The notes under the pieces were generated by a model. The model was given only the letters and a program-made list of their open reading frames with translations. It ran no database searches and had not been told where the DNA came from. The translations under genes were made by a program, and so were the position numbers. DNA of 64,000 nt from Bacteroidia bacterium (GTDB taxonomy: Bacteria > Bacteroidota > Bacteroidia > Bacteroidales > VadinHA17), in contig JAPLEB010000105.1 of the NCBI GenBank assembly GCA_026391555.1, positions 9,356 to 73,355 on the forward strand, read 5' to 3'. Below are positions 6,865 through 59,052 of this stretch, piece by piece (position 1 is the first letter of the stretch; each line of letters begins with the position of its first letter).

Positions 6865-8340
6865 ATGAACCAACTTAATCTCACAATCCTATTGGCTTTG
6901 TCGTATTCCTATTCAGCCAACCAACCGGAAACATCTCCAGAAAAAACGAATTCTCCTAACCTGCTGATCATTCAAACCGACGAACATAACTTCCGTACAT
7001 TGGGTTGTTATCGTGCACAGCTGAGCCATGAACAGGCTTTTATGTGGGGAGATGGCAATTATGTTGAAACTCCCAATATTGATTATCTGGCGAAGAGTGG
7101 AGTAATATTCACAAAATTTTATGCTGCCACACCTGTGTGTTCACCTTCCCGAGGCTCGCTTGTTTCAGGCATGTATCCTCAGTATACGGGCGCCCCGGTT
7201 AACGATGTACCCATGAACAGAAATATCGTAACCTTTGCCGAAGTTTTGAGCAAAGCTGGTTACCAAAATGGATTTATCGGGAAATGGCATCTCGATGGTG
7301 AAGATAAACCAGGCTGGGAACCTGTCAGTAAATTTGGTTTTGAAGACAATAAATACATGTACAATCGCGGACATTGGAAAAAACTGGTTGAATCAGTTGA
7401 TGGTCCGCAGGTGGGATCAGTAAACAGTAATGGAGATCCGATATATGACCTTAATGGCGCCGACGAGAAGTCGTTCACCACAGATTTTCTTACCGACAGG
7501 GCAATCCAATTTTTCAAAAGAAATGCATCTGTGCCTTTTTGTCTCTACCTGAGTTATCCTGATCCACACGGCCCCGACCTGGTGCGCCCACCTTACGACC
7601 AAATGTACACAAACCTGCCTTATGTAGCTCCGGCAAACTATTATGTGAATGGTGAAAATGCTCCTTCATGGGCTAAGCCTGAAAAAAATGCTGGTATCGA
7701 CCAGTCTCAATATTTTGGAATGGTCAAATGCATTGACGACAATATCGGGAGACTGCTCAAATATCTTAAATCAGAAAAATTGATCGAAAACACAGTTATC
7801 ATTTTTACTTCCGACCACGGTGATCTGCGCGCCGAACATCACCGCGAAAATAAAGGGGTCCCGCTTGAAGCTTCAGCCAAAGTTCCATTAATAATTTCGT
7901 ATCCTGCCAGGATTCCTTCCGGAGCGGTCGTAAATAAAGTGTTTAATACTGTTGATTTCGCCCCAACCATTTTAAGTTTCCTGAATCAAAAAGCGCCTGC
8001 CGAAATGCAGGGTCGCAATTTTGCAGATCTGCTGACAAATCCCGTCAATCAAAAAGATTGGGAGGATATCACGTTTATGCGTTCAACAGGCTTGGGAAAC
8101 ACCGGAAACTGGGTTGCTGCTGTTACTTCGCGGTACAAACTTATACTTTCGAAAAACGATGAACCCTGGCTGATTGATTTGCAGGAGGACCCTTATGAAT
8201 TAATTAATTTCATCAGTAAACCTGAAATGGAACCGGTGGTCAAAGAACTTGCAAAACAACTCAGCAATTATGCACAAAAACGCAATGACCCGTTTCTTCA
8301 GGGAACAAAAATGGCTGAGGATTTAAAAACTATATTGTAA
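6865..8340 (+). CDS. Sulfatase (Cys-type formylglycine sulfatase family)
   Basis: Signature TPVCSPSRGSLVSGMYP (C-x-P-x-R), plus LIIQTDEH, GKWHLDG and FTSDHGD metal/active-site motifs. Confidence 0.9.
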   Translation: MNQLNLTILLALSYSYSANQPETSPEKTNSPNLLIIQTDEHNFRTLGCYRAQLSHEQAFMWGDGNYVETPNIDYLAKSGVIFTKFYAATPVCSPSRGSLVSGMYPQYTGAPVNDVPMNRNIVTFAEVLSKAGYQNGFIGKWHLDGEDKPGWEPVSKFGFEDNKYMYNRGHWKKLVESVDGPQVGSVNSNGDPIYDLNGADEKSFTTDFLTDRAIQFFKRNASVPFCLYLSYPDPHGPDLVRPPYDQMYTNLPYVAPANYYVNGENAPSWAKPEKNAGIDQSQYFGMVKCIDDNIGRLLKYLKSEKLIENTVIIFTSDHGDLRAEHHRENKGVPLEASAKVPLIISYPARIPSGAVVNKVFNTVDFAPTILSFLNQKAPAEMQGRNFADLLTNPVNQKDWEDITFMRSTGLGNTGNWVAAVTSRYKLILSKNDEPWLIDLQEDPYELINFISKPEMEPVVKELAKQLSNYAQKRNDPFLQGTKMAEDLKTIL

Positions 8341-8569
8341 CCTTTAAAGCTATAAAGTCAGCATTGCAACGGATGGACTTTTTATTAAAAGAACTTCATG
8401 AAGAGCATGATGTGTCCGTGAAATTACCTGCCATCTGCGATGGGATTTCAGAAGAGCGCAACGAATAAGATTGGAGCTCATCAGTAAAATAGAAGGTGAT
8501 GAAAAAGCAACCCAATATTTAGAACAAAACATTGCTAATTTTGATTAGCCAATGTTTAAAATAGCATAA

Positions 8570-9277
8570 ATGTCAAGAGACCAAAGAACCCACAATATAC
8601 AGGATATAGAATTCAAAGTAATATATTCAAGAAGAAGGACCCTGGGGATCAGTGTCCTTCCCGATTCATCGGTGATAGTCAGGGTACCATATCTGACCTC
8701 TTTGAAAACAATAAACAGGATCGTTCAGGAAAAATCGGGTTGGATAATAAAACACAGAGATAGTTACAAAGAAAAAGAGAAGAGTAAGCTTAATGGATTG
8801 TATGTTACCGGTGAGACTCATCTTTTCCGTGGCAATGAGTCTGTTTTAAAGATTGAAAAATCCAGCAAAGCATATATCCGGTTTTACAATGGTATAATTG
8901 AGCTTGGACTCGAAAATACTGATGATAGCCGGGCTATAAAGTGGTGGTTGTATAAAGGGTATAAAAATGAAGCTTTGATTGTTTTTCCTGATATCATGAA
9001 TAAGGTTCTTAATAAGCATGATATACAAATGTTTAAGCCTACAGGGCTTGTTATACGTACTATGAAAAGACGCTGGGGAAGCTGTTCAAATAAAGGAATA
9101 ATAACACTGAGCACTGAACTCATTAAACTGCCTGATTTGTTTATTGAATATGTTATTCTTCATGAGTTATGCCACCTTAAACACCATAACCATGGTAAGG
9201 AATATTACAGATTATTATCTGAAGTATTTCCTGATTATAAACAGGTTAGAAAACAGTTGAGGAGGTACATTCAGTAG
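8570..9277 (+). CDS. YgjP-like M48/DUF45 metallopeptidase-fold protein
   Basis: C-terminal WGSCSNKGIITLSTELIKLP...YVILHELCHLKHHNHGKEYY (HExxH in the DUF45 context). Confidence 0.8.
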   Translation: MSRDQRTHNIQDIEFKVIYSRRRTLGISVLPDSSVIVRVPYLTSLKTINRIVQEKSGWIIKHRDSYKEKEKSKLNGLYVTGETHLFRGNESVLKIEKSSKAYIRFYNGIIELGLENTDDSRAIKWWLYKGYKNEALIVFPDIMNKVLNKHDIQMFKPTGLVIRTMKRRWGSCSNKGIITLSTELIKLPDLFIEYVILHELCHLKHHNHGKEYYRLLSEVFPDYKQVRKQLRRYIQ

Positions 9278-9300
9278 GGACAGGTCGCGACCTGTCCCTA
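9275..9300. terminator. 26-bp perfect palindrome (bidirectional terminator candidate) that includes both convergent stop codons
   Basis: tagggacaggtcgcgacctgtcccta. TAG of the plus-strand gene is 9275-9277; cta at 9298-9300 is the TAG of the minus-strand gene. Confidence 0.6.
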
Positions 9301-10698
9301 CACATCGTACTCCTGTCCTTTAGCCGGAATTTCAATATTTTTATAACCCTCATTCATTAGTGAAGCAGCATATTTTTTCTGTGTTTCATACTCACCATGA
9401 ACAATAAAGGTCTTCTCTAAGGCACTCTTATCCTGACAACTTAAAAAGCTGATCATTTCCTTATAATCTCCATGACCACTGAATGATTCGATTTTTTTCA
9501 CTTCAGCTCTTACTTCATAAACAGTTCCATGTATGGAAACCTCTTTATCCCCTCTGACTATTCTTGCTCCCAGTGTTGTTGGTGCACAATATCCCACAAT
9601 AAGAATGGTGTTCTTAGTATCCGATATATTATTTGCCAGATGATGTTTTACACGTCCGGCTTCCATCATACCTGAGGCAGAAATAATTACACAAGGCTTC
9701 TTGTGGTCGTTAAGTTTTTTTGAATCTTCAACCTTTGTGATATAAAACAGATTATCAAAACCAAAGGGATCAGGATCTGTTTCCAAAACATGGAGAAAAT
9801 TCTTATTGTAACATTCTGGATGCATCCTGAAGACTGTTGTCGCGTTTACTGCAAGAGGACTATCGACAAAAATATCAATTTTAGGCAGCCGACCCTGGTT
9901 AAAAAAGTTATTAAGGGCAAAAACAATCTCCTGTGTGCGTCCAACGCTGAAAGCAGGGATGATAAGCTTGCCACCTTTAGTTACACAGGTATCTACAACT
10001 ACCTTAAGAAGATCTTCTTCAGCCACCTGAACATCGTGATGCAACCTGTCTCCATAAGTTGATTCGGTAATAAGGATATCGGCCTGGGGAAAAGGCTGTG
10101 GTGTGGCGAGAATAGGGTCAACCGGCCTGCCAATATCTCCTGTGTAGGCTATCCTCTTAATCTGCCCGTTTTCGATAATCTGAAGATTTGCTACCCCGCT
10201 GCCAAGCATATGGCCGGTGTTTGTAAACTTAACCTTTATGTTTTCGTCAATCCTGAACTTCATTTCATTTGGTACTCCGATAAAGAGACTCATGCATTCA
10301 GTTGCATCGGCTTGTGTATAAATCGGGGTCACAAGGGGAATTCCATTTTTAGCTCTGCGTTTATTGAATGTAAGTGTATCATGTTCCTGTATAAAACCGG
10401 AATCGGCAAGCATTATGGCACAAAGATCGCGTGTTGCATTTGAACAGACCACAGATCCCCTGAAACCCATCTTGTACATATAAGGTATCAGTCCGGCATG
10501 ATCTATATGGGCATGAGTAAGAATTATATGATCTATCCGGGAAGGGTCGAACATCAGGTCCCTGTTCATACCATCGGTTTCGAGTCCTTTACCCTGGAAC
10601 ATACCGCAATCGAGTAGTATCCTTTTTCCTAAGTTTGTAGTTATAAGATGTTTACTTCCTGTAACCTCCCTCGCAGCGCCTATAAATTTGATTTTCAT
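9298..10698 (-). CDS. MBL-fold beta-CASP hydrolase (RNA-metabolising metallo-beta-lactamase family)
   Basis: HAHIDHAG zinc motif, N-terminal FIGAAREVTGSKHLI, and the length and C-terminal GHGDYKE pattern typical of beta-CASP proteins. Confidence 0.85.
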   Translation of the reverse strand: MKIKFIGAAREVTGSKHLITTNLGKRILLDCGMFQGKGLETDGMNRDLMFDPSRIDHIILTHAHIDHAGLIPYMYKMGFRGSVVCSNATRDLCAIMLADSGFIQEHDTLTFNKRRAKNGIPLVTPIYTQADATECMSLFIGVPNEMKFRIDENIKVKFTNTGHMLGSGVANLQIIENGQIKRIAYTGDIGRPVDPILATPQPFPQADILITESTYGDRLHHDVQVAEEDLLKVVVDTCVTKGGKLIIPAFSVGRTQEIVFALNNFFNQGRLPKIDIFVDSPLAVNATTVFRMHPECYNKNFLHVLETDPDPFGFDNLFYITKVEDSKKLNDHKKPCVIISASGMMEAGRVKHHLANNISDTKNTILIVGYCAPTTLGARIVRGDKEVSIHGTVYEVRAEVKKIESFSGHGDYKEMISFLSCQDKSALEKTFIVHGEYETQKKYAASLMNEGYKNIEIPAKGQEYDV

Positions 10699-10819
10699 AA
10701 TGTTGTAGAATATATTGGATTTTTATTATCAAAACTTATGGATTTAAAGATAATGAATTATTTCAAGAAGGCGACTGAAGACAGAGATACCAGGTAGTCT
10801 CATTTTTAAGTTAACATTA

Positions 10820-12136
10820 TTAAACAAAAAGACTCAGTACCATCACTCCTATCAATCCGGTAATACCTATTGATGTTTCCATTACAGTCCAGGTTTTCAA
10901 TGTATCTTTAATGCTAAGATTGAAGTATTCTTTAAAGAGCCAGAATCCACCATCATTCACATGCCCCAGCATAAGACTTCCTGAACCAATTGCGAGCACC
11001 ATTAACTCAGGTTTTACGGCTCCTCCGGAGACCAATGGCAGAATTATACCTGCAGTGGTAATGCCTGCCACTGTAGCCGAGCCTACACAAAAGCGCAAGA
11101 TAGTCGCGATAAGCCAACCAAGAAACAAAGGGGAAAGAGTAGATTGACTCAACAATTCGCCAATATATTTACTTACTCCTCCATCAACCAGAACTTGTTT
11201 TAAAGCGCCGGCACCGGCAATAAGGAGCATAATCATTGTGATACTGATTACCGAATGAGACAGGGAACTCATAATATCAGTTATTTTTCTTCCCCTGGCC
11301 AGTCCGAGTGTATAAATAGCAAATAAAACAGATAGCAGCATGGCAATAACCGGATTCCCGATATATCCCAACACTTTTCTGACCTCATTATCCTCTGTCA
11401 GCATGAATCCGGCAATGGTTGAAATAGTGATCAGGATAACCGGAAACAGGGCAGAAAAAAAACTTACCCAGAAGCCTGGCATCTCTTCGTTGGTTAAACC
11501 TTTCTGATTTATAAATTCCTGCAACGGTTTAGCCTCTATTTTACTAAGCACTTTTGACAGTACAGGTCCGGAAATGACTATTGCAGGAATTGCAACAATT
11601 ATTCCGTATACTAACGTTTTTCCCATATCTGCATTGAACATTGCTGTAATCGCTGTCGGAGCAGGATGAGGAGGCAGATAACCATGAGTGACAGAAAGTG
11701 CGGCTAACATCGGTAAGCCGACATATAATAATGGAAGACCGGTTGAAGCCGCGACTGTAAATACAAGTGGGATCATAATAAAAAATCCAACATCGTAAAA
11801 CAGAGAAACACCCACAATAAAACCTGTCAGCATTAAAGCCAGTTGTATGTGTTTTAAACCGAAAGCCTGTACCAGCCTTGAAGTTATTTTCTGTGCTGCA
11901 CCGCTTTCTGAAACCAGTTTACCAAGCATGGCGCCGAAACCAAGTATCAATACAAGAAAGCCCATTGTATTCCCAATTCCGTTTTCTATTGAGATAACCG
12001 CTTTGTCAAGGGGCATTCCTTCAGCAAGGGCAACCGCGAGAGAGACAATAACAAATGATAAAAATGAATTGAATTTTACTACGAGGATCAGGAAAAGCAG
12101 AAGGCAAATTCCCAGGATAACTATGAGTAGCGGCAT
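10820..12136 (-). CDS. GntP-family permease (gluconate/sugar-acid:H+ symporter)
   Basis: 438 aa, about 12 TM segments, with GntP-like blocks (GNTMGFLVLILGFGAMLGKL, GLPLLYVGLPMLAALSVTHGYLPPHPAP, GHVNDGGFWLFKEYF). Confidence 0.9.
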   Translation of the reverse strand: MPLLIVILGICLLLFLILVVKFNSFLSFVIVSLAVALAEGMPLDKAVISIENGIGNTMGFLVLILGFGAMLGKLVSESGAAQKITSRLVQAFGLKHIQLALMLTGFIVGVSLFYDVGFFIMIPLVFTVAASTGLPLLYVGLPMLAALSVTHGYLPPHPAPTAITAMFNADMGKTLVYGIIVAIPAIVISGPVLSKVLSKIEAKPLQEFINQKGLTNEEMPGFWVSFFSALFPVILITISTIAGFMLTEDNEVRKVLGYIGNPVIAMLLSVLFAIYTLGLARGRKITDIMSSLSHSVISITMIMLLIAGAGALKQVLVDGGVSKYIGELLSQSTLSPLFLGWLIATILRFCVGSATVAGITTAGIILPLVSGGAVKPELMVLAIGSGSLMLGHVNDGGFWLFKEYFNLSIKDTLKTWTVMETSIGITGLIGVMVLSLFV

Positions 12137-12154
12137 AATTCGGAATATATTAAG

Positions 12155-12214
12155 TTACAGATTACAGATTACAGATTACAGATTACAGATTACAGATTAC
12201 TACCTACTACCTGC
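12155..12214. repeat. Heptamer tandem repeat: (TTACAGA/GATTACA) x6 followed by tacctac/tacctgc units
   Basis: Read directly: ttacaga x6 from 12155 to 12196, then ttac tacctac tacctgc. It lies in the 88-nt spacer between the Gfo/Idh/MocA stop (12225) and the gntP-like start (12136). Confidence 0.95.
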
Positions 12215-14583: not shown

Positions 14584-16809
14584 ATGAAAAGAACAGGTTT
14601 GTTTTGTTATTCAGTTCTTTTTGTTATACTCGCTGTTGAACTGGTTATTCTGGCTGGTTGTAAAAAAGTCAAGGTCAGGATAGAAAGCGTAACGACCACT
14701 GAAGTAACCAATATTACATATACAACAGCTTCCAGTGGTGGCAATATAACAGATGACGGAGGCCACCTGATTACATCCAGAGGAGTATGCTGGAGTACTT
14801 CATCCGGGCCAACAATTGCCGATTCAAAAACTACTGATTCTTCCGGTACAGGTTCATTTACCAGCAGTATAACCGGACTAGAAGCCTCCACTGCTTACTA
14901 TTTAAGAGCATATGGTACAAACAGTGAAGGTACTGTATATGGTGACGAGGTGAGTTTCTCTACTTTGCAATTGGGAGCCAATCAGGTTCAGGATATTGAT
15001 GGTAATATATACAATACTATTACCATAGGCACACAGGTATGGATGAAGGAGAACCTTAAAACAACCAGGTACAGTAATGGTACAGCCATACCAAATGTTA
15101 CGGACCCTACAGCCTGGGAAAATTTAGGCACCACAGGTGCATACTGTGATTACGATAATGACCCTGCAAATTCTTCCATTTTCGGAAGATTGTATAACTA
15201 TTATGTATGTGAAAGGGTAAGTGATAACGTATGCCCTACCGGTTGGCATGTTCCCTCTGATAATGCTTGGGGAACACTCGCCATATATCTTGGCGGGACA
15301 ACAATAGCTGGTGGCAAACTTAAAGAAACCGGTACAGATCACTGGTCAGGTCCCAACACGGGAGCAACAAACGAAACCGGTTTTACGGCAATTCCAGGCG
15401 GTGCCCGTAGGAAAAGCAGTGGCCTTTTTTCCGATAAAGGAGGTGTATTATATTTGTGGGAGATACAGTTCAGCCAGTCAGTATATTTTAACCAAAGTTT
15501 GTCCTTTAATAGCAGCGGGTTGTATAGGAACGCCGTTGCCACTAATGTCACTGTCCTGGGCAATGGGTATTCCATACGTTGTATGAAGAATGATGAGATA
15601 CCAGTTCTAAATACTGCCGTTGTAACTAATATTACATCAACATCAGCCACCAGTGGAGGCAGTATAATAAGTGGAGGAACAATTTATGCAAAAGGCGTTT
15701 GCTGGAGTACATCTAACCTACCCACATTGAATGATAAAAAAACGAATGATGGTACAGGGCCAGGACCTTTCGTAAGTAACATCACGGATTTAATTGGATC
15801 CACAACATACTATGTCAGGGCATACGCTCAGGGCATTAATTACAGTTCAACTGGTTATGGCCCCGTTGTCAGTTTCACTTCAAATGATACCGAGGTTCCT
15901 GTTCTTACTACAACAGCTATCACTTCAATTACACCAGGAACTGCTAGCAGCGGTGGCAATGTTATATCAAATGGTGGATCTCCGGTTACATCAAGAGGTG
16001 TTTGCTGGAGCACTTCATCGAATCCCACAGCTTCTGATTCAAAGACCAGTGACGGGACAGGCAGTGGTTCATTTATTAGCAACTTAACAGGATTAACACC
16101 CAACACCATTTATTATTTAAAAGCTTATGCAACTAACAGTGTCGGCACAGGATATGGAAATCAAATTCAATTCAATACCAATGACTATACTGGCCAGACC
16201 GGAACAGTTAAAGATTTTGATGGAAATACTTACAAAACAATAGGAATTGGAAACCAAATATGGATGGCTGAAAACCTGAGGTCTACAAAATACAATGATG
16301 GTACAGCCATTTCTAATGTTACGGACCCTACAGCCTGGAGTAGCTTAGGCACCACAGGTGCGTACTGCTGGTATAATAATGATTCAGCCAGCTATAAGAA
16401 TGTATATGGTGCATTATACAACTGGTATGCTGTTAATACAGGTAAACTATGCCCTGTTGGCTGGCACGTTGCTGCTGATGCAGAATGGACAGTGCTTATA
16501 ACCTTTCTCGGTGGAGAAAGTATTGCCGGAGGAAAATTGAAAGAATCCGGAACCACACACTGGTTAAGCCCCAACTTAGGTGCAACCAATGAATCCGGCT
16601 TTACAGCAATGCCAGGCGGGTTACGTTATAAATTCGGAGGTGCAGTGTTTCTTTCGATGGGATCCTGGGTGAATTTTTGGACTGCCACAGATCAAATTTC
16701 CACTGAGGCAATCAGGCGTGCTTTAGTAAATACCACCAAAGAAGTGTACAGGGATGATCACAGCTCTAAGATGGACGGATATTCGGTTCGTTGTCTGAAG
16801 GATAATTAA
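14584..16809 (+). CDS. Lipoprotein with two FISUMP (Fibrobacter succinogenes major paralogous, TIGR02145-type) domains and three Ig/Fn3-like repeats
   Basis: Lipobox LILAGC. Repeats of the form T..IT.T.A.SGG.I...G..IT.RGVCWSTS..PT..D.KT.DG.G.G.F.S.ITGL...T.YY.RAY. Two blocks WM(K/A)ENL(K/R)(T/S)T(R/K)Y(S/N).GTAI...YG(R/A)LYN(Y/W)Y...CP.GWHV...W..L...GG..IAGGKLKE.GT.HW..PN.GATNE(T/S)GFTA.PGG. Confidence 0.8.
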   Translation: MKRTGLFCYSVLFVILAVELVILAGCKKVKVRIESVTTTEVTNITYTTASSGGNITDDGGHLITSRGVCWSTSSGPTIADSKTTDSSGTGSFTSSITGLEASTAYYLRAYGTNSEGTVYGDEVSFSTLQLGANQVQDIDGNIYNTITIGTQVWMKENLKTTRYSNGTAIPNVTDPTAWENLGTTGAYCDYDNDPANSSIFGRLYNYYVCERVSDNVCPTGWHVPSDNAWGTLAIYLGGTTIAGGKLKETGTDHWSGPNTGATNETGFTAIPGGARRKSSGLFSDKGGVLYLWEIQFSQSVYFNQSLSFNSSGLYRNAVATNVTVLGNGYSIRCMKNDEIPVLNTAVVTNITSTSATSGGSIISGGTIYAKGVCWSTSNLPTLNDKKTNDGTGPGPFVSNITDLIGSTTYYVRAYAQGINYSSTGYGPVVSFTSNDTEVPVLTTTAITSITPGTASSGGNVISNGGSPVTSRGVCWSTSSNPTASDSKTSDGTGSGSFISNLTGLTPNTIYYLKAYATNSVGTGYGNQIQFNTNDYTGQTGTVKDFDGNTYKTIGIGNQIWMAENLRSTKYNDGTAISNVTDPTAWSSLGTTGAYCWYNNDSASYKNVYGALYNWYAVNTGKLCPVGWHVAADAEWTVLITFLGGESIAGGKLKESGTTHWLSPNLGATNESGFTAMPGGLRYKFGGAVFLSMGSWVNFWTATDQISTEAIRRALVNTTKEVYRDDHSSKMDGYSVRCLKDN

Positions 16810-16909
16810 GGTAGTAAATGATTGGTCAGGTTGTATTTGCAGGGCGCTGTATTCCTGGAGGAGCTTTTCCTTATCTTCCACCTAATTTTGCCCACAACAT
16901 CCCCATTTT

Positions 16910-17436
16910 CTAATGAATAGCTTCTTCCAGCATTTCTTTATTTTCTGAAGCAGGGACCCACCTCCATGGATATATATGTGATCCATATTTCAGGATAAAA
17001 CTTGCAGGTGCAACAATTGGGTTGGTACCGGCTTTACGGAAGTGCATAACTGCCCGGGGCATTTGAATAGCTCTAGGAACTAAAATGAGACTATTTTTTG
17101 TCCCAAAATTCTTTACATATTCTTCCGCTTCCATTCAGGTATTTGAGGGTGTTGACTGAATGGACATAGAGGCAGAATCAATTCCAAGAATTATCGCTGT
17201 ACGGTAAAGAACAAGCGCATGTGACAACTCTGATCTTTTGCTGTAACCTGATGTGGTATGAGTCTGCTACCCCTGGTCATCCTGTGGATCCGTATTCCTT
17301 CAACCAGACACGACAGTGATATTGAGGATAACTGGTTATTAGGAGATAGGTTTTTATCATCATAGTTGTCTCCTCCAAGAACGATTATATCACATGAATC
17401 AGCGAGTTTATTTATGGATGATTCAGATAGTTGCAT
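16910..17436 (-). pseudogene. DUF218 (YdcF/SanA/ElyC-family) pseudogene with one frameshift and one in-frame TGA
   Basis: Three collinear pieces. 17436-17191: ...DIIVLGGDNYD...EGIRIHR...RLI. Shifted frame: TSGYSKRSELSHALVLYRTAIILGIDSASMSIQSTPSNT, ending at the TGA at 17135-17137. Same frame continues MEAEEYVKNFG...LILVPRAIQMPRAVMHFRKAGTNPIVAP. Joined, these reproduce the DUF218 pattern. Confidence 0.65.
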
Positions 17437-17497: not shown

Positions 17498-18221
17498 TCA
17501 TGTTAAAAAGTTCTTATCAATGTAGTTTTGAAACTTACTTTTATACTGATCGCTAACCGGAATATAAACTTTCCCGTCGAAAATAATCCGGTTCCTTTCT
17601 ATAACCGAAATCTTAGAAAGGTTAACTATATAAGATCTATGATCTATGCACTCTCATGAACCTGTCAGATGGTAATATCTCCTCAACAGACTTCATGCTT
17701 AACAGCGTCATTACCGGCTTAGCGCTGGTAAGGTGAATTCTGATATACTCACTCATTCCCTCAATATACTTTATATCGTCAAAGTTGATTCTGAGTAATT
17801 TATAATCAGATTTGATAAATAGAAAATCTTTATTGCTCCTGACTTCATCTGACTTTTGATGATGCGAATCAAACCATGTTTTAACCTTATTGGCTGACTT
17901 TAAGAAATCAACATAGCTGATGGGTTTAAGCAGGTAGTCGATGGCATCAACCCTGAAACCTTCTAATGCATATTCGCTGTAAGCCGTGACAAATACTATC
18001 TTAGGAGGATTTTCAAGAGTTTTAACGAAATCCATTCCGTTAAGATCGGGCATATTTATATCAACATACATGAGGTCAACCGGGATATTTTCTAAAATCT
18101 CAATTGCCTGAAAGGCGCTTTCACACTGCCCAACCAACTCCAGAAAAGGTGTTTTCTTAACGTAATCAGCTATTTGCCTCAAAGCCAAAGGTTCGTCATC
18201 TATTGCTATGCATCTGATCAT
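17498..18221 (-). pseudogene. LytTR-family response regulator disrupted by a 7-bp tandem duplication (gatctat gatctat at 17634-17647)
   Basis: The track ORF stops after FMRVHRS. Removing one 7-bp copy restores FMRVHRSYIVNLSKISVIERNRIIFDGKVYIPVSDQYKSKFQNYIDKNFLT* (238 aa), collinear with the intact paralog at 19732..20448. Confidence 0.85.
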
Positions 18222-18388
18222 AATGGAATCGATAGGGTTTCACTACGTTTATAAGATAAAGAACCGGCAGTCTTTATTTCTGCGGAAAAGCAGAAACAAA
18301 TATAAAAAATTATTTCTGACCGACTAAAAGTATGAGATTCTTCGCTTCGCTCAGAATGACAAGCGTTTAGTGAGTTAGAGAGTCGAGG

Positions 18389-18421
18389 GGGGTGGTTGGA
18401 GGCACAGCCTCCAACCACCCC
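18389..18421. repeat. GC-rich perfect hairpin (14-15-bp stem) within a GC-rich intergenic island
   Basis: ggggtggttggagg-cacag-cctccaaccacccc, preceded by gattcttcgcttcgctcagaatgacaag. This island explains the spurious 66-aa track ORF 18218..18418. Confidence 0.75.
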
Positions 18422-18485: not shown

Positions 18486-19553
18486 TTAATTTCTCTGATA
18501 ATAAATATCGTAGGCAATCCAGTCGACAACATAAGCTGCAAAGTAAACCGAATGTAAAGAATCAAACAGGGTTTTTATGTTCTCAATTGAGTTACCAATT
18601 AAAGCAGAAACTGTTGAAGTCGTTCCATCTTCAAAAGTTATCTGGATATCTCGTTTTTTACAAACTGATGCTTCCGGGTCAGCTACCTTATCAACGATTG
18701 CAACTACAGCATCTGGTTGCAATAAACCATTTACGTATACTTCAACTGCTTTCGTGCCTGATTTTCTGATGATTTGTACATCACCGATGGTAAGAATGTA
18801 CTGGTGCTCGCGACCAAACCTGCCGGTGTCAATCTTTACAGTGAGTAATTTTTCTTCATATAATACCTTATTATCACCCGTAATTGTGAAGCTTGAAACA
18901 GTTGTATCGCCTGACTCATATTTATAATCTGCGGTATAGCTGCTGCTGAATGCATATTGAGAAGCATATTTGATACCCAGGGTCGGACTAACAAAATAAT
19001 TTATATTTAAGTTGCCAGCAAGAACATTATCCACACTGATCTCTGATGCCAGGATATAGTCAAAATCGTGATAACTGTTATAATTATTATGATAACCAGA
19101 TACAGCAATTGAAAAATTATTTGTCAGCAAAGAATCTGATGGTACATATTCTCTTAAATATCTTGGGTTCACAACTTTTTTTAATGGCATACGAACAATC
19201 ATCTTGCTGTTATCGGAAGCCTTATTGAAATACCTGATTAATGATAGTCCCCATCTGTCTGTTTTAGGTACAGGTTTATAATCATATACTCCTTTAACTG
19301 TATCAAGAGTAATATATACCCTATAATTTGAATCTGTAGTACTGGCAGACTTTTGAGTTCCGTCAGTTACAGTTAGAATACTATAAGCTTTGGAGGAGGA
19401 AATAGCATCCATAGCTGTATTTAAATTCAGAGCGCTCTGATTAATCGCTGATTTCAGAGAAAGGCTATTTACAATACCATCATTCTTTGCGCAACTCCAT
19501 AATAGTGCACTTAAGAAAGCAGTAACTAAAATGATTCGACCTTGATTTTTCAT
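18486..19553 (-). CDS. Hypothetical lipoprotein
   Basis: Signal/lipobox MKNQGRIILVTAFLSALLWSCAKNDG. Beta-rich S/T/N/Y composition; no motif recognised. Confidence 0.6.
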   Translation of the reverse strand: MKNQGRIILVTAFLSALLWSCAKNDGIVNSLSLKSAINQSALNLNTAMDAISSSKAYSILTVTDGTQKSASTTDSNYRVYITLDTVKGVYDYKPVPKTDRWGLSLIRYFNKASDNSKMIVRMPLKKVVNPRYLREYVPSDSLLTNNFSIAVSGYHNNYNSYHDFDYILASEISVDNVLAGNLNINYFVSPTLGIKYASQYAFSSSYTADYKYESGDTTVSSFTITGDNKVLYEEKLLTVKIDTGRFGREHQYILTIGDVQIIRKSGTKAVEVYVNGLLQPDAVVAIVDKVADPEASVCKKRDIQITFEDGTTSTVSALIGNSIENIKTLFDSLHSVYFAAYVVDWIAYDIYYQRN

Positions 19554-19731: not shown

Positions 19732-20448
19732 TTATCCCAAGGAATGCGAATGGATGTATTTTTGAAATATTTCTTTATATTGTTCACTTACAGGGATATA
19801 TACTTTACCCTCAAAAATTATCCTTGAATGGTCAATTGTGGTGATTTTCTCAAGGTTGACAATATATGAACGGTGTACTCTCATGAATTTATCTGAAGGT
19901 AGTTGTTCTTCAAGAACACGCAAACTTATAAGTGGCAAAAGAGATTTACCGTTTAGAAGATGAATGCGCACATATTCACGCATCCCTTCAATATAAATAA
20001 TGTCTTCCAGGCTGATACGGACCATTTTATACCCCGATTTTACAAACAAATATTCCCTGTCGCCCCCCTTTTTTGTTGCCTGTGGAAGAACATTTTCAAA
20101 ATAATTTCTGGCTTTATTAGCTGACTTTAAGAAATCACCATAACCGATTGGCTTAAGCAGGTAGTCGATGGCATCAACCCTGAAACCTTCTAATGCATAT
20201 TCGCTGTAAGCCGTGACAAATACTATCTTAGGAGGATTTTCAAGAGTTTTAACGAAATCCATTCCGTTTAGATCGGGCATATTAATATCAACAAACATCA
20301 GGTCAACCGGGATATTCTTTAAAACATCAATTGCCTTTAAGGCACTTTCACATTGTCCGGACAACTCGAGAAAAGGTGTTTTTTTAATGTAACCAATAAT
20401 CTGCCTCAAAGCAAGCGGCTCGTCATCTATTGCAATGCATCTGATCAT
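19732..20448 (-). CDS. LytTR-family response regulator (REC + LytTR DNA-binding domain)
   Basis: REC: IAIDDEPLAL...DLMFVDINMPDLNG...VFVTAY...LLKP. LytTR: ...IIYIEGMREYVRIHL...FMRVHRSYIVNL.... Its start overlaps the kinase stop by 4 nt. Confidence 0.9.
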   Translation of the reverse strand: MIRCIAIDDEPLALRQIIGYIKKTPFLELSGQCESALKAIDVLKNIPVDLMFVDINMPDLNGMDFVKTLENPPKIVFVTAYSEYALEGFRVDAIDYLLKPIGYGDFLKSANKARNYFENVLPQATKKGGDREYLFVKSGYKMVRISLEDIIYIEGMREYVRIHLLNGKSLLPLISLRVLEEQLPSDKFMRVHRSYIVNLEKITTIDHSRIIFEGKVYIPVSEQYKEIFQKYIHSHSLG

Positions 20449-21551
20449 AATGGTATTGATAGGTTAACAGTAAATAAATCTTTATTGTCGATTATATCAA
20501 GATGGTAATTATTACCGTACAGTAACTTTAAACGTTTTCGGGTGTTTTCAATACCTATCCCGGAAAATTCTTCAATCTGGCTTTTATCGGTTTTACTATT
20601 TTTCACAACCAACAGGAGTCGTTCTTCGCCTATAATAATATCTATATTGATAAACGATTCATCCTTATAACTGATACCATGCTTAAAAGCATTCTCAATT
20701 AATGAAGTAAATATAAACGGAGGTATCGTTTTTTCCGGAATAGTAGCAGGTAAATTAAGGGTAATGCTTACCTTCTCATTAAACCTTAACTTCATCAGGC
20801 TGATATAGCTTTCCAGAAATTCTATCTCTTTTTTTAATGTTGTTTTTTCAGTTTCTGTTTCATACAATAAGTAACGCATCATTTTCGATAGCTTAATTAT
20901 TGCCTCTTTGGCCTCCTCTGCATTAACATCAACCAGTGAATGGATATTATTCAAAGTATTCATCAAGAAATGGGGGCTAACCTGATTACGCAGAAGAACA
21001 AGTTGAGAAGCCACATTTTCTTTTTCAAGTCTTACTTTTTCATTTTCAATATTTATTCCTCTAAGACCTGAACGTAATCCTGTATCAAAGCCCACAAAAA
21101 GTATCGACAGAATCAGAAAGTTTGCAAAGGGAGGTATTGGCCTTGGTTGCCGGGTCTGTGCCGGACGCAAATTTCCAAACTGATCGACTCCCCCGGGAAA
21201 GGCATAAGGAGGTGACTTAATCTGATCCTCCAACGTGGGAACTTCAGGAGGCGGAACATTTTTGAATTTTGTATCGTAAATATAAGAACCTGCTGTGAAT
21301 AGAATTATAAGCCCCAACACTGACGCGATGAAAAAAACCTGCTTCCCCTTGAAAAGTAATCTGGGAACGAGTATGAACCGGTTTATAAGAAACACTACCA
21401 ATAGCGGGATAAGAATTTGCAGTTGCAAAAGTATGCTTCTTCGTATGGGACTGTAAATATCTTCCCTGAAAAGAATGGGAGTGAAAAGGAGAACCAGCCA
21501 AACGAAGATGATAAGAACTAATTCTGAATATTTTATTTTTATATTTTGCAT
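20445..21551 (-). CDS. Sensor histidine kinase of the LytS/YehU type (PF06580 His_kinase + HATPase_c) with an N-terminal TM region
   Basis: Multi-TM N-terminus, then QVSPHFLMNTLNNIHSL (the PHFL.N motif of PF06580) and a C-terminal ATPase block ...PPFIFTSLIENAFKHG...GIGIENTRKRLKLLYG. Confidence 0.85.
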   Translation of the reverse strand: MQNIKIKYSELVLIIFVWLVLLFTPILFREDIYSPIRRSILLQLQILIPLLVVFLINRFILVPRLLFKGKQVFFIASVLGLIILFTAGSYIYDTKFKNVPPPEVPTLEDQIKSPPYAFPGGVDQFGNLRPAQTRQPRPIPPFANFLILSILFVGFDTGLRSGLRGINIENEKVRLEKENVASQLVLLRNQVSPHFLMNTLNNIHSLVDVNAEEAKEAIIKLSKMMRYLLYETETEKTTLKKEIEFLESYISLMKLRFNEKVSITLNLPATIPEKTIPPFIFTSLIENAFKHGISYKDESFINIDIIIGEERLLLVVKNSKTDKSQIEEFSGIGIENTRKRLKLLYGNNYHLDIIDNKDLFTVNLSIPL

Positions 21552-23548: not shown

Positions 23549-25710
23549 GTGGCTTCTAAATTCAAACTTTCATTTTCAAATTTCAAACTATTGTCGCTGT
23601 TCACCACGAGTTTAAATTCCCTGGCCCAAACCTGCCGGCTGAAAGAGTAGCCGGTAAGTTTTGTATAATACTCAAAGCTATCCACATCAAACTCTGATCC
23701 TATCATTTTCATCCTGACACTTGAATCTGATTTTAAGTACATGAAAAAGGGTGCTGTAATATCGTGCAGAAAGAGCCTCCATCCGGCAAATGTACGGTTT
23801 ACAGGTAAAGAATCTGTTGAGACATAACCATCAATATATAAAAGAGGAACTCTGAACGCCGCCAGATAAAAATAGTACAGCAACGATTTCCGGTCTCCGT
23901 CAAAATGGGTGAAACAGAAGTGAACACCATCGTACCGGAAGTTGGCAATTGATTTTGTATCATGACAGAATATATAGGATCTGTTATAAATATTGGTAAA
24001 GACCTCCCAGGTAATTTTATCTGTACCTTTTGAAGTTTTGACGTTCCAGTTCAGTTTTGTGCCAGGCATCAGATTGAACGTTATTTTAAGAATCAAATTT
24101 TCTTCAATGGGTTTCACACTCTGTCCTTTGGATGGATAGCTGAACGTTCTGAGTTCTTTCCCATTTTCTAAATACGCAAAAAGCGGGTATTTTAATGTTT
24201 TTGAACCAATATAAGGTGTTGTTTGAAGCTGAAAATGAAGGTGTGGGTATGGGGAGCGTCCGGAATTTCCAACCTTTGCTATGACCTGGCCATAATGGAC
24301 ATTATCGCCTGTTTTCACTGAAACCGATCCTTTCTGAAGATGACTAAGTTTTGAGTATAATCCTTCGGCATGTTTGATTATCACAGTATTTCCCCAGTTT
24401 TTAAATGTGTTAACATCTCCAATCTTATTATCGTCGATTCCATCCTCGGAAACAACTACTGATCCATCGGCTGGTGCAACTACATTCTGACCAAAACAGT
24501 AATAGTCCTTCAGGTTGTTTCCATTATCGTTATATTGAGCCAAATCTCTGTTGATAATTACAAAATCCCAGGCATTGGACCACTCGCCTTTGTGAGTGTA
24601 CTCACCGTTATGGCCCTGGCTGACATGCCACTCTCCAAAGAAAGGAAGTTTAATCTGCAACCAGCCAAAGTTCGGGAAACGTTTTGTAAAACTCTGGTAA
24701 GAGTATAGATTGCGCTCCGGTGTGCCCTCCTGAATTTGCACTTCCTTAAACTGACTCTGCACCGTTCTAAACCTTAACGAGTATATGAAAGTCAATATTA
24801 TTATGTTAAAAGGAAGCGATAGCAAAGTCAGATTAAAAGGTTTAAGCAAAACAAACAGACCTGCCGAAACTAAGGCTATAATAGGTGTAATGGCAAATGC
24901 CCAGAAGAACGACTGTTTAGATGGAATATAGAAATACCCGCCGATAGCAATGGCTCCTAAAATGAAATTAAATCCAATATAGTTATAACCCAACCGGGTC
25001 AGGTCCATACCAAAAAAGGAGTAAGCCAGCCAGGCAACGCTAAAACCCAGCAACGAAAGCATAAAAGCGATCCTGGAATAGAAAATCAATGCGACTGCTA
25101 CAACAAATCCCGCGAAAACATTAAACTGAAAGAATATTGCACCCAGGGAAAGAAAGTAGCTGTTTACAAAGTTGGATGTAATCTTCCCAACTAACCATTG
25201 ATGCAGATTTACAAGAGGATGTCCGCCAATAATAAAGAGTTTATTGAGAACATAAACCCCGCTTTGATTATCTTCCGTTCCGCTTAGCATCCCTCCGGCG
25301 CTTAAGACAATCCAGATACTTATAACGAATGGAATCGAGAGATATGGAAGGTAGTATTTGCCTAAAATACCCTGGAAAGTAATTGTGATTAAAAGGGTTA
25401 AAAACCCTGATAATATTGCTATTACAACGATTACAAAGGTTAATTCATAATAGTACCCTAACCCAAGTCCCACCAGAAGACTATTGAAACCGTAAAACCC
25501 TTTCGTTGTAGGTAATTTATCAAACTTCAATAACGAAGCAGTGATGTTTGCGGTCAGTACTGAAAGCAACCCGGCAAAACCGGCAGAAATATCGAGGAAG
25601 GAAACTATAACCAGGGGAATGGCAAACCAATAGCTCTCCGAGAAGAATATCTGGGAGTAGCTTCTTAATACTCCCTGGAAGAAAGTGGATATTGTGGCGT
25701 TTTTTAACAT
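23533..25710 (-). CDS. Fusion protein: urea-transporter (UT)-fold polytopic membrane domain + M23 metallopeptidase domain + ~200-aa C-terminal domain of unknown function
   Basis: N-terminal LRSYSQIFF...GFYGFNSLLVGLGLG and about 10 TM segments (UT-family-like). The central part carries M23 motifs: HKGEWSNAWDF (HxxxD region) and GNSGRSPYPHLHFQLQ (HxH). Confidence 0.75.
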   Translation of the reverse strand: MLKNATISTFFQGVLRSYSQIFFSESYWFAIPLVIVSFLDISAGFAGLLSVLTANITASLLKFDKLPTTKGFYGFNSLLVGLGLGYYYELTFVIVVIAILSGFLTLLITITFQGILGKYYLPYLSIPFVISIWIVLSAGGMLSGTEDNQSGVYVLNKLFIIGGHPLVNLHQWLVGKITSNFVNSYFLSLGAIFFQFNVFAGFVVAVALIFYSRIAFMLSLLGFSVAWLAYSFFGMDLTRLGYNYIGFNFILGAIAIGGYFYIPSKQSFFWAFAITPIIALVSAGLFVLLKPFNLTLLSLPFNIIILTFIYSLRFRTVQSQFKEVQIQEGTPERNLYSYQSFTKRFPNFGWLQIKLPFFGEWHVSQGHNGEYTHKGEWSNAWDFVIINRDLAQYNDNGNNLKDYYCFGQNVVAPADGSVVVSEDGIDDNKIGDVNTFKNWGNTVIIKHAEGLYSKLSHLQKGSVSVKTGDNVHYGQVIAKVGNSGRSPYPHLHFQLQTTPYIGSKTLKYPLFAYLENGKELRTFSYPSKGQSVKPIEENLILKITFNLMPGTKLNWNVKTSKGTDKITWEVFTNIYNRSYIFCHDTKSIANFRYDGVHFCFTHFDGDRKSLLYYFYLAAFRVPLLYIDGYVSTDSLPVNRTFAGWRLFLHDITAPFFMYLKSDSSVRMKMIGSEFDVDSFEYYTKLTGYSFSRQVWAREFKLVVNSDNSLKFENESLNLEATCESY

Positions 25711-25722
25711 TAATTGGGGGAT

Positions 25723-25785
25723 GTTTCGTGTTTCGTGTTTCGGGTTTCGATTTGACTTTTATCTTTTTACATTTGTCTTTTGTCT
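25723..25785. repeat. Nine-unit heptamer-periodic tract filling an intercistronic gap
   Basis: gtttcgt gtttcgt gtttcgg gtttcga tttgact tttatct ttttaca tttgtct tttgtct, read in phase. It lies between the decarboxylase stop (25786) and the UT/M23 start (25710). Confidence 0.9.
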
Positions 25786-27162
25786 TCAACCCAGGTACTC
25801 CGGTATTACCTCATTAGCTGATATATTTTCAAGTGTTTCAGCACGCCTGATTACATGAACCTCCCTGTTCTGATCTATTAAAACAACATTTGGCCGGGTG
25901 GTTATAAACTGCAGCCACTGGGTGTTATTGTAAGCTCCTGTTCTGGTTATTACAAACCTGTCGCCACGTTTCAATGCAGGGAACATAAGCGAAGGTCTGA
26001 TAACATCTATATTCATACAAAGCGGACCAAAGATTGTTGTCTCCTCAACCAAACCAGAATGAATGCTAACGGGGTGAATTTTATGATCGTACCAGAATGA
26101 TGTAAAAAGCAGATTCACACCAACATCAACAATGGTTGCTCTGTGACCATCCGAAAGATGTTTATTTGCAAGCACAGAACCAGCAATGTACCCTGCGTTA
26201 TCTATTAGCGCACGTCCGGTTTCCAGTATTAATGTCGGCAGTTTATCGGGTTTAATCTGAGAATTGATAATTGCTGATGTTATAGCCTCTGCGTATTCAT
26301 CGAACGAAGGAGTTGTATCCTCACCCGAAAGGTAGGCTCCCCTCAGAGTATTCTTCGATGCAAATCCTCCGCCCATATCGATATATGAAATATGATGATC
26401 AAATTTCTGAGCTATATTGTAAGTCAGATCAGCAAGCTTTGTAGCCGCGACCCGGTAAGCATCAACACTCATTATATAGGTACCTATATGAGTATGTAAA
26501 CCCATTAGTTTTAGTTTTGGGTTCATCATAATGCGATTTATTGCATCCCATGCTTCACCGTTCTCGTAGTTTAATCCGAACCTGTCCCATTTGGGATAAA
26601 TTCCAATATCCATATTTACCCTGACGGCTACCCTGGCCTCAATATTTTTTCTCTGACAGACATCCGATAACATGAACAGCTCATCTATATGATCGATGTG
26701 AATGAACGATCCATTCCTTACGGCTTTCTCCAGATCATTAATACTTTTACCCGGTCCGTTAAAAATAATATTTTCTCCTTTTACACCATTCCCGATCGCT
26801 TTATCGTACTCAAAACCCGATACAACCTCGGCCCACGATCCTTCCTGATGGAAAATCCGGCAGATGGAATCTAAATAATTGGTTTTGTAACTCCATGCCA
26901 TCTGGACTTTTTGATATCTGAGGTTGAATGCTCTTTTGATATCCTCCATCCCTTTTCTAATTGTCCGTTCAGAAAAAACATAAAGAGGTGATCCATATTT
27001 GTCAAGGAGATCATCTACCTTAACTCCGTCTATAAAAGGCAATGGGGCAACTACCGTTCCAACCCCATGCTTCGATGGAACACCCGGATTTAAACGGGTT
27101 ATTGTTGGTCTTTCGAACATTAATTTTGACATGATATTGTGTTTATTATTTTCGTTCTGCAA
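25786..27162 (-). CDS. Fold-type III PLP-dependent decarboxylase (Orn/DAP/Arg decarboxylase family, DAP-decarboxylase-like)
   Basis: PLP-lysine motif WSYKTNY, glycine loop IDMGGGF, active-site GPLCMNID, and HTHIGT. Confidence 0.85.
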   Translation of the reverse strand: MQNENNKHNIMSKLMFERPTITRLNPGVPSKHGVGTVVAPLPFIDGVKVDDLLDKYGSPLYVFSERTIRKGMEDIKRAFNLRYQKVQMAWSYKTNYLDSICRIFHQEGSWAEVVSGFEYDKAIGNGVKGENIIFNGPGKSINDLEKAVRNGSFIHIDHIDELFMLSDVCQRKNIEARVAVRVNMDIGIYPKWDRFGLNYENGEAWDAINRIMMNPKLKLMGLHTHIGTYIMSVDAYRVAATKLADLTYNIAQKFDHHISYIDMGGGFASKNTLRGAYLSGEDTTPSFDEYAEAITSAIINSQIKPDKLPTLILETGRALIDNAGYIAGSVLANKHLSDGHRATIVDVGVNLLFTSFWYDHKIHPVSIHSGLVEETTIFGPLCMNIDVIRPSLMFPALKRGDRFVITRTGAYNNTQWLQFITTRPNVVLIDQNREVHVIRRAETLENISANEVIPEYLG

Positions 27163-34134: not shown

Positions 34135-34185
34135 ATAAAAGATAAAAGACAAAAGTAAAAAGTTGAAAAAGTCTAAAGTTTAGAG
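34135..34185. repeat. Heptamer-periodic A-rich tract, the reverse complement of the CTTTTAT-type units
   Basis: G recurs at 34141, 34148, 34155, 34162, 34171 and 34178 (spacing 7,7,7,9,7): ataaaag ataaaag acaaaag taaaaag ttgaaaaag tctaaag. Confidence 0.7.
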
Positions 34186-48783: not shown

Positions 48784-48801
48784 TCTGAGAACTTGGAAAA
48801 A

Positions 48802-48871
48802 GGCGACAGGCGACAGGAATATTGGAAAGAGACAGGGTTTAATTTCTTCCTAATGCCTGTCGCCTGTTGCC
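48802..48871. repeat. Inverted heptamer-repeat hairpin (ggcgacaggcgacagg ... cctgtcgcctgttgcc) between convergent genes
   Basis: The arms at 48802-48817 and 48856-48871 are complementary with one mismatch, with a 38-nt loop. Each arm consists of two 7-nt units. Confidence 0.7.
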
Positions 48872-49226: not shown

Positions 49227-49324
49227 AATGCAGCGTATTAAATAATGAAAGAAACCACATACAATTCCACATTGTAATATTTTTACAATTTAATAAATAT
49301 AAATCACTTATGCCGTCCCTGATG

Positions 49325-49359
49325 CCTGTCGCCCGTCGCCTGTAGCCTTTAATTTTAGT
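49325..49359. repeat. Heptamer tract: cctgtcg cccgtcg cctgtag cctttaa ttttagt
   Basis: Read in phase. Its first 19 nt are the inverted complement of 48802-48817 on the other side of the four-helix-bundle gene. Confidence 0.7.
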
Positions 49360-57948: not shown

Positions 57949-58011
57949 CCTGTTGCCTGTCGCCTGTCTTTCTACTTTTATCTTTTTACTTTTATCTTTT
58001 ATCTTTAAAAT
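57949..58011. repeat. Nine-unit heptamer-periodic tract between pstS and pstC
   Basis: cctgttg cctgtcg cctgtct ttctact tttatct ttttact tttatct tttatct ttaaaat, read in phase. Confidence 0.9.
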
Positions 58012-59012: not shown

Positions 59013-59052
59013 TTGGATTCGCCTTTTGCCTTTTGTCTTGAACCTTGAACTT

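Follow-up and report, generated by a model that had tools for sequence, protein, structure and literature searches.

The 64-kb window that we analysed (64,000 nucleotides of contig JAPLEB010000105.1, from a Bacteroidia bacterium) contains on its minus strand a gene for a LytTR-family response regulator, here called RR2, that is interrupted by an exact 7-bp tandem duplication. We think it probable that in RR2 an ancestral-type LytTR regulator has become an incipient pseudogene, through a young frameshift null allele most likely produced by replication misalignment. According to this explanation, a spontaneous 7-bp tandem duplication would have been inserted into the codons of the HRSYIVN motif, and replication misalignment would be its most likely cause, with only 1 nucleotide (nt) of flanking microhomology. 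Translation would then shift to the +1 frame and halt at once at a TAG codon, yielding a product of 194 amino acids (aa) that lacks the last ~40% of the LytTR fold. The relevant parts of the gene are as follows.

17498 to 18221, minus strand: RR2, frameshifted LytTR-family response regulator gene (Response_reg and LytTR domains, identified with Pfam in the restored protein).
17634 to 17647: exact 7-bp tandem duplication, reading GATCTAT GATCTAT on the plus strand and ATAGATC ATAGATC in the sense of the gene.
17637 to 17639, minus strand: premature TAG stop codon resulting from the frameshift, after residue 194.
17498 to 17636, minus strand: out-of-frame 3′ tail of RR2, comprising the last 44 LytTR codons and the original TGA, in the +1 frame.

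The plus strand between 17625 and 17655 reads ACTATATAA GATCTAT GATCTAT GCACTCTC, with the two heptamers at 17634–17640 and 17641–17647. The periodic run at the site is 15 nt long (17634–17648), which accounts for the single nucleotide of microhomology, and Tandem Repeats Finder scored it as 2.1 exact copies of the heptamer. RR2 measures 724 nt as sequenced and 717 nt (238 aa) minus one heptamer. The duplication is located at codon 195 of the 238-codon gene, among the codons of the conserved HRSYIVN motif, and the minus-strand open reading frame (ORF) from 17637 to 18221 encodes 194 aa with the C-terminus ...FMRVHRS. A preliminary description of this DNA had reported the doublet, the early end of the frame at FMRVHRS*, and the recovery of a protein of the paralog's length after deletion of one copy, and our analysis confirmed all three. 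Deletion of either heptamer copy gives a 238-aa protein ending in ...HRSYIVNLSKISVIERNRIIFDGKVYIPVSDQYKSKFQNYIDKNFLT*, which has the same length as the intact neighbouring regulator RR1 (19732–20448) and as 114 of the 120 listed homologues.

Apart from the 7 nt, the gene is in good order, as the preliminary description had also stated. RR2 begins with ATG, all of the receiver residues D8, D9, D54, T79 and K99 are present, and the tail contains no further stops or indels, the +1 frame being open to the original TGA at the orthologous position. The restored protein has complete matches to both domains: the receiver to PF00072 (E = 4.6e-18) and the LytTR domain to PF04397 (E = 6.9e-23; residues 141–232, covering profile positions 2–97 of 98). 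As sequenced, no single frame holds the complete LytTR domain, the frame ending at residue 194; with one heptamer removed, a single frame holds all of it. Alignment to the solved structures 3d6w and ComE 4cbv places the end of the LytTR fold at about residue 230. The stop after residue 194 thus cuts off about 40% of the domain, from inside its most conserved motif, and the 194-aa product should not bind DNA.

Exact heptamer doublets are common by chance: second-order Markov simulations gave about 4.8 ± 2.1 of them per 64 kb. The evidence for a real insertion event is thus of a comparative rather than a statistical kind. Removal of one heptamer re-opens 44 codons that are 84–91% identical to those of the orthologues, up to the shared stop. 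Chance does not explain this re-opening together with the single copy that is present at the site in all of the orthologues.

In each of the relatives that we examined, the site is in the ancestral state of one copy. All 10 orthologous DNA loci read CAY AGR TCT TAT at the site, which corresponds to one copy, and the motif F(M/L)R(V/I)HRS(Y/F)I(V/I) is uninterrupted in all 120 listed RR2-type homologues. We scanned the GTDB representative genomes with a codon-degenerate pattern that tolerated 0–14 inserted bases and obtained three matches, all of them one-copy; the source genome itself was not among the matches. When the codon-degenerate pattern was made to require 1–14 inserted bases, there were 0 matches in 241 million metagenome records, and a strain-specific DNA pattern that admitted either allele (0–14 inserted bases) had 0 matches in metagenome contigs. 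The comparison with orthologues that the preliminary description had proposed therefore returned one-copy sites throughout, and no two-copy relative with a compensating change was found.

The lesion is also clearly young. Measured against orthologues, the ratio of non-synonymous to synonymous substitution rates (dN/dS) was 0.045–0.08 for the 44-codon tail and 0.044–0.07 for the upstream 194 codons, although the dS to the nearest relatives is 0.7–1.1, which is near saturation, and the tail offers only about 106 non-synonymous sites. Because the tail has the same dN/dS as the body of the gene and has acquired no extra stops or indels, we regard it as bearing the signature of purifying selection, with no sign of relaxed constraint. 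Of the three possibilities raised in the preliminary description, namely a very recent inactivation, a reversible switch, and a sequencing or assembly artefact, it is the first that these data support.

In all essential respects RR2 is like ordinary young bacterial pseudogenes, which have a single disabling lesion, syntenic intact orthologues and undegraded downstream sequence. The depositor's annotation very probably flags it already. The source contig, 88.7 kb long, bears locus tags of the series NT144_*. The locus tag NT144_10005 lies between NT144_10000 and NT144_10010 and has no protein, and the flanking protein accessions are consecutive; because of this gap, RR2 is very probably NT144_10005 of the source genome, and the depositor's pipeline very probably annotated it as a pseudogene or as non-coding. 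The only unusual feature of the case is that a widely conserved type of regulator has been inactivated while a lineage-restricted paralog survives. The locus runs on the minus strand in the order LytS-type kinase, RR1, 355-aa protein, RR2, and the remnant of a DUF218 gene. The first three of these genes are the following.

20445 to 21551, minus strand: LytS-type sensor histidine kinase (PF06580 His_kinase plus a GHKL domain).
19732 to 20448, minus strand: RR1, LytTR response regulator, intact at 238 aa; its gene and the kinase stop overlap by 4 nt.
18486 to 19553, minus strand: 355-aa protein with no Pfam match, between RR1 and RR2; its position is conserved in the two-regulator relatives.

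The database comparison separates the two regulators clearly. Restored RR2 is 81–93% identical to each of the 120 best listed database proteins, nearly all of which are 238 aa long, whereas RR1 is only 65–72% identical to the same 120 proteins. RR1-type proteins are scarcer, with about a dozen at an identity of at least 81%. In relatives that have a single regulator (loci L003/L004 and L006–L009), the regulator that follows the kinase is of the RR2 type (88–90% identity), and the flanking genes are 82–86% identical. The relatives L010–L013 and L018 have the layout kinase, RR1, ~350-aa protein, RR2, and in these RR2 is intact at 238 aa. Because RR2 is the sole regulator type of the single-regulator relatives and is close to the 120 homologues, we conclude that RR2 is the conserved, ancestral-type regulator of the kinase and RR1 a lineage-restricted, divergent second regulator. 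The preliminary description had called RR2 a regulator paralog, and its paralogy to RR1 holds; the emphasis, however, has to be reversed, since RR2 is of the ancestral type and it is the intact RR1 that is divergent. Annotation transfer by synteny would be misleading here, as the intact copy beside the kinase, RR1, is not the orthologue of the regulator that the relatives have at that position.

An RR2-type regulator also occurs away from any kinase. At locus L001 (1–8008), an orphan copy of this type (P0005, 89% identical) stands in a mobile-element setting, adjoining DUF1670 genes, a DUF4143 fragment, three tyrosine-recombinase genes in a row and a DDE transposase.

The kinase at 20445–21551 is the sole kinase of the locus and, judging from the gene arrangement, is presumably the partner of both RR1 and RR2. 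Linkage of the regulator genes, including those of the RR2 type, to a kinase is seen as well in L003, L006–L013 and L018. RR1 and RR2 share 89% aa identity in the receiver (residues 1–110) and 61% in the LytTR domain. Because the receivers are nearly identical and the DNA-binding domains different, the two regulators are probably two output branches of one sensor that differ in DNA specificity. The locus is thus like branched pathways of one kinase and two regulators with concerted evolution of the receivers, in that it has a kinase gene and two regulator genes, 89% identical receivers, a freshly converted tract of 116 nt, and output domains that are 61% identical. It differs from them in that phosphotransfer to both regulators is here predicted from the gene arrangement.

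The converted tract lies inside the receiver-coding halves of the two genes:

17926 to 18041, minus strand: 116-nt tract of RR2 (gene nt 181–296), 100% identical to RR1.
20153 to 20268, minus strand: RR1 side of the 116-nt identical tract.

On its 5′ flank RR1 and RR2 are 80–90% identical, and on its 3′ flank about 60%. The paralog pairs of L010 and L018 are 85.5% identical over the tract, and their longest identical runs anywhere are 22–26 nt. Because the L010 and L018 paralogs do not have the identical tract, the 116 nt indicate a recent gene conversion that is specific to this genome.

The spacer upstream of RR2 contains a second local peculiarity:

18318 to 18421, minus strand: perfect hairpin with a 15-bp stem (18389–18421), followed by a repetitive extragenic palindrome (REP)-like element.

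The hairpin arms are GGGGTGGTTGGAGGC TGT GCCTCCAACCACCCC, and the window has a single copy of the REP-like element, GTCATTCTGAGCGAAGCGAAGAATC. Over 1,762 nt, from 20182 to 18421, the Logan contig L014 of run SRR20698647 matches the window at 100% identity; it then diverges exactly at the hairpin and REP-like element, both of which it lacks; the divergent part is 1763–1815 of L014. Because L014 is identical up to this element and diverges from there, it represents a co-occurring haplotype with a strain-level structural polymorphism just upstream of RR2. The other end of L014, a product of independent assembly at k=31, falls exactly 30 nt into the 116-nt tract. We also considered a chimeric join at the REP-like element, and rejected it; the order of the 355-aa gene and RR2, and that of RR2 and the alcohol dehydrogenase gene, is the same in L010–L013, L008 and L018.

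The real gene might have one GATCTAT, the second copy having been introduced by metagenome assembly, scaffolding, gap closing or polishing. The source of the RR2 sequence is a metagenome-assembled genome, the gene is flawless apart from the 7 nt, which an artefact would also produce, and the exact truncated product occurs in no other public assembly. In addition, an independent assembly of a run that contains the same strain breaks on either side of RR2, with strain heterogeneity adjacent to it. The truncated 194-aa product, when looked up, was not on record. The partial product of residues 90–194, which is what would be expected on a k=31 Logan contig, was likewise not on record, and a homology search with these residues returned no 100%-identical fragment. 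The ORFs of the DUF218 remnant, looked up as possible contig-mates of the site, were not on record either.

The surrounding sequence argues for a real lesion. No broken genes were seen elsewhere in the 64-kb window, with the exception of the adjacent DUF218 remnant, which carries several different lesions. Three sets of split-gene candidates (39983/40560, 51093/51829 and 1–1970) were discarded; on inspection they are intact genes in their own right or a long ORF that continues beyond the window edge. The only repeat liable to confuse an assembler is the 116-nt RR1/RR2 tract, which is about 290 nt from the duplication, and at the site of the duplication the two copies are about 60% identical. 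Nor is the exact tandem duplication of 7 bp, where the sequence is unique and no homopolymer, known as a typical error of short-read or long-read platforms. The assembly of the relative L018 shows what error-driven frameshifts can look like: at 7727–11294, its genes for alcohol dehydrogenase, GFO/IDH/MocA and GntP are each split into two or three ORFs, whereas a Logan contig that has the same regulator as L018 encodes an intact 343-aa alcohol dehydrogenase. L018 has the appearance of an error-prone assembly, probably one made from long reads, in which many genes are broken together; RR2 is intact there. The gap in the locus tags at NT144_10005 counts on the same side. Because the assembly of the window looks clean elsewhere and other lesions are confined to the immediate neighbour of RR2, unlike random error, we favour a real lesion and consider an artefact unlikely, while leaving it some weight.

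The neighbour in question is the gene next to RR2:

16880 to 17436, minus strand: DUF218 (YdcF/SanA-like) pseudogene directly downstream of RR2.

Its DUF218 domain extends over two frames, with an in-frame TGA at 17135–17137 and a probable premature TAG near the 3′ end, and in GenBank its pieces are two hypothetical proteins, NT144_10000 (81 aa) and NT144_09995 (74 aa). It is an older pseudogene than RR2, and its several independent lesions fit local relaxed selection better than random sequencing error. In relatives (L008 3284–4065, L018 7717–7727), a zinc alcohol dehydrogenase gene follows RR2 directly or within about 0.8 kb. In the corresponding region of the window (14584–17436), RR2 and the alcohol dehydrogenase gene are separated by the DUF218 remnant and by an opposite-strand gene for a 741-aa FISUMP (Fib_succ_major) protein. 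Because these two intervene in the window and not in L008 or L018, the region downstream of RR2 is a variable insertion site. Rfam and tRNA scans of the window gave no matches.

As for the origin of the extra 7 nt, two sources other than replication misalignment were rejected. One is the excision footprint or target-site duplication of a transposon; bacterial transposable elements rarely leave excision footprints of such a kind, and neither element remnants nor inverted repeats were found. The other is template switching to RR1. The corresponding site of RR1 reads CGT TCA TAT ATT and has only 5 nt in common with the junction.

Slippage would also be in keeping with what has been described for another LytTR regulator, AgrA of Staphylococcus aureus, which spontaneous mutations inactivate by slippage or by duplication (Gor et al. 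2019, PMC6686034). AgrA belongs to the same family (receiver plus LytTR), and there, too, the null alleles arise from small slippage or duplication events in an otherwise intact locus; the mutants arise readily and persist in populations (PMC6686034). The two cases differ in that RR2 has a second regulator, RR1, on what would be the same kinase, and in that RR2 is known from its sequence alone.

Several points weigh against the view that RR2 is a young null allele. The nearest relatives are distant (about 85% nucleotide identity, dS near 1), which bounds the age of the lesion only to some minor part of that divergence, and the statistical power of a 44-codon tail is limited. The DNA-binding domains of RR1 and RR2 differ (61% aa identity), and simple redundancy fails to explain why a loss of RR2 would be tolerated. 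The co-occurring haplotype is structurally different just upstream of RR2, and the allele may be polymorphic rather than fixed. Finally, we looked for an independent assembly covering the site and found none, and an artefact therefore retains part of its weight.

One could also envision that the duplication is not a null mutation in the ordinary sense but one state of a contingency locus. In this scenario, gain and loss of a heptamer by slipped-strand mispairing would toggle RR2 on and off, and the truncated, receiver-only product would perhaps modulate the signals that the shared kinase relays. In principle, losing one unit can undo a tandem duplication precisely, the remainder of RR2 is intact, and the heptamer arrays of this lineage, described below, show real copy-number instability. 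Reversible inactivation of AgrA by slippage in a repeat tract is, in addition, documented (PMC6686034). It is the same study, however, that limits the analogy. Frameshifts in the poly(A) tract of agrA revert at a frequency that can be measured, but no revertants were obtained from a duplication within the gene (PMC6686034); the reversible cases of agrA concern a homopolymer tract, and RR2 has a two-unit heptamer.

The comparison with established contingency loci leads to the same assessment. The hmw promoters of Haemophilus influenzae have 7-bp repeats that act as simple-sequence-repeat contingency loci. RR2 is like these loci in its 7-nt unit and in that the gain or loss of one unit would switch the frame. 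Loci of the hmw type, however, have many tandem units in a conserved tract whose number varies between strains, whereas the RR2 site, in an invariant motif, has two units, many fewer than make up the tracts of known phase-variable repeats. The site has neither a repeat nor an insertion in any orthologue, and hence there is no sign that a hypermutable tract has evolved there, and the duplication strikes the most conserved motif of the LytTR domain rather than a tolerant region. The reversible switch proposed in the preliminary description is thus not supported, given the two units, the lack of a tract or of copy-number variation in the orthologues, and the empty insertion-only metagenome scan, and we consider it very unlikely. 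Occasional precise reversion is possible for any tandem duplication, but this does not make a contingency locus.

A further way in which RR2 could remain functional is programmed +1 ribosomal frameshifting at UCA UAG A, which would yield full-length RR2 with two extra residues. In +1 frameshifting of the prfB type, a 0-frame stop directly follows the shift site, as it does here, and the downstream +1 frame of RR2 stays open as far as the normal stop. It would, however, be unfavourable for tRNA-Ser to re-pair from UCA to CAU, and no stimulatory element is evident in the sequence. The recoded product would carry its two-residue insertion inside the invariant HRSYIV motif, and no orthologue has such a frameshifting arrangement. 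We regard recoding as extremely improbable, and the null allele remains our preferred explanation.

As an event, the duplication in RR2 is of an ordinary kind, one more young pseudogene in a metagenome-assembled genome, and matters little in itself. It has a modest value for the evolution of two-component systems, since an ancestral-type regulator would have just been lost, its lineage-restricted paralog kept, and the receivers of the two joined by a conversion tract. What is most useful here is that the orthology has been corrected, a fresh gene-conversion tract found, and attention drawn to the heptamer arrays of the window, which are its more interesting biology.

The preliminary description had noted that the length of the duplicated unit equals the period of intergenic tandem arrays elsewhere in the window, and had taken this as a hint of a common duplication mechanism. 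Such arrays are located as follows.

12155 to 12212: period-7 array.
25722 to 25786: period-7 array.
34135 to 34160: period-7 array.
49324 to 49348: period-7 array.
57949 to 58006: period-7 array.
59021 to 59050: period-7 array.
2749 and 3402: further period-7 arrays.

In total, the window contains 16 exact heptamer arrays of at least two copies where 4.8 ± 2.1 are expected, a 3.3-fold enrichment, and repeats of period 8 are at expectation. The excess is wholly intergenic, with 12 arrays where about 0.5 would be expected, in about 10% of the sequence; coding heptamer doublets number 4 against an expectation of about 4.3. [quoted passage not shown]

Copy number in these arrays varies between relatives. 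The spacer between the ornithine/diaminopimelate (DAP) decarboxylase gene and the UT/M23 gene (25700–25800 in the window, 595–740 in L003, 1520–1720 in L006/L009) contains arrays in all three lineages. AGACAAA is present there in about 9 copies in L003 and in 2 in the window, CGAAACA occurs in 2 versus 3 copies between lineages, and L006 has units of the AGACGGA type together with ACTTCGG in three copies. These differences show that heptamer copy number is unstable in the lineage and evolves quickly at a fixed position.

Intergenic direct repeats of heptamers upstream of start codons (TAACTGA and others) have been described in Beggiatoaceae, Cyanobacteria and some Bacteroidetes (MacGregor 2015, PMC4679880), and no mechanism is known for them (PMC4679880). 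The arrays of the window resemble these repeats as well as the short tandemly repeated repetitive (STRR) repeats of cyanobacteria. Like the arrays of MacGregor 2015 (PMC4679880), they have a period of 7, stand before start codons and differ in copy number between relatives. The duplication in RR2 is different: it is intragenic, it consists of two copies of an unrelated unit, and it is absent from the relatives. It therefore shares neither the intergenic location of such arrays nor their recurring units and variable copy number.

One hypothesis that would connect the two is that a lineage-specific duplication process of period 7 built the intergenic arrays and also produced the duplication in RR2. 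The 3.3-fold enrichment, with period 8 at expectation, would agree with such a process, and the diversity of the array units suggests that it would be specific to the period rather than to the sequence; the differing copy numbers in orthologous spacers (AGACAAA in about 9 copies in L003 against 2 here) are in keeping with it. The whole of the excess is intergenic, however, with coding doublets at chance level, and none of the window's array units yields GATCTAT/ATAGATC by rotation or complementation. The orthologues show no instability at the RR2 site, and a single event of length 7 among the many possible lengths of small duplications is weak evidence. Of the suggestion in the preliminary description, the shared period thus stands, but the case for a common mechanism is weak, the length being the one thing shared, the units unrelated and the coding doublets no more frequent than chance; we consider such a mechanism improbable. 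A more specific version, in which a process peculiar to the lineage, duplicating and deleting exactly 7 nt, makes the intergenic arrays grow and shrink and occasionally hits coding DNA, and RR2 is a revertible null allele whose receiver-only protein might serve as a phosphate sink on the shared kinase, seems to us slightly more doubtful still. Replication misalignment at RR2 itself remains the more probable origin of the duplication.

One further arrangement of heptamers was observed. At 48801–48817 and 48850–48870, between convergent genes, a pair of arrays with one and the same unit stand in inverted orientation (AGGCGAC AGGCGAC ... GCCTGTC GCCTGT). These inverted arrays could form a hairpin and serve as a bidirectional terminator.

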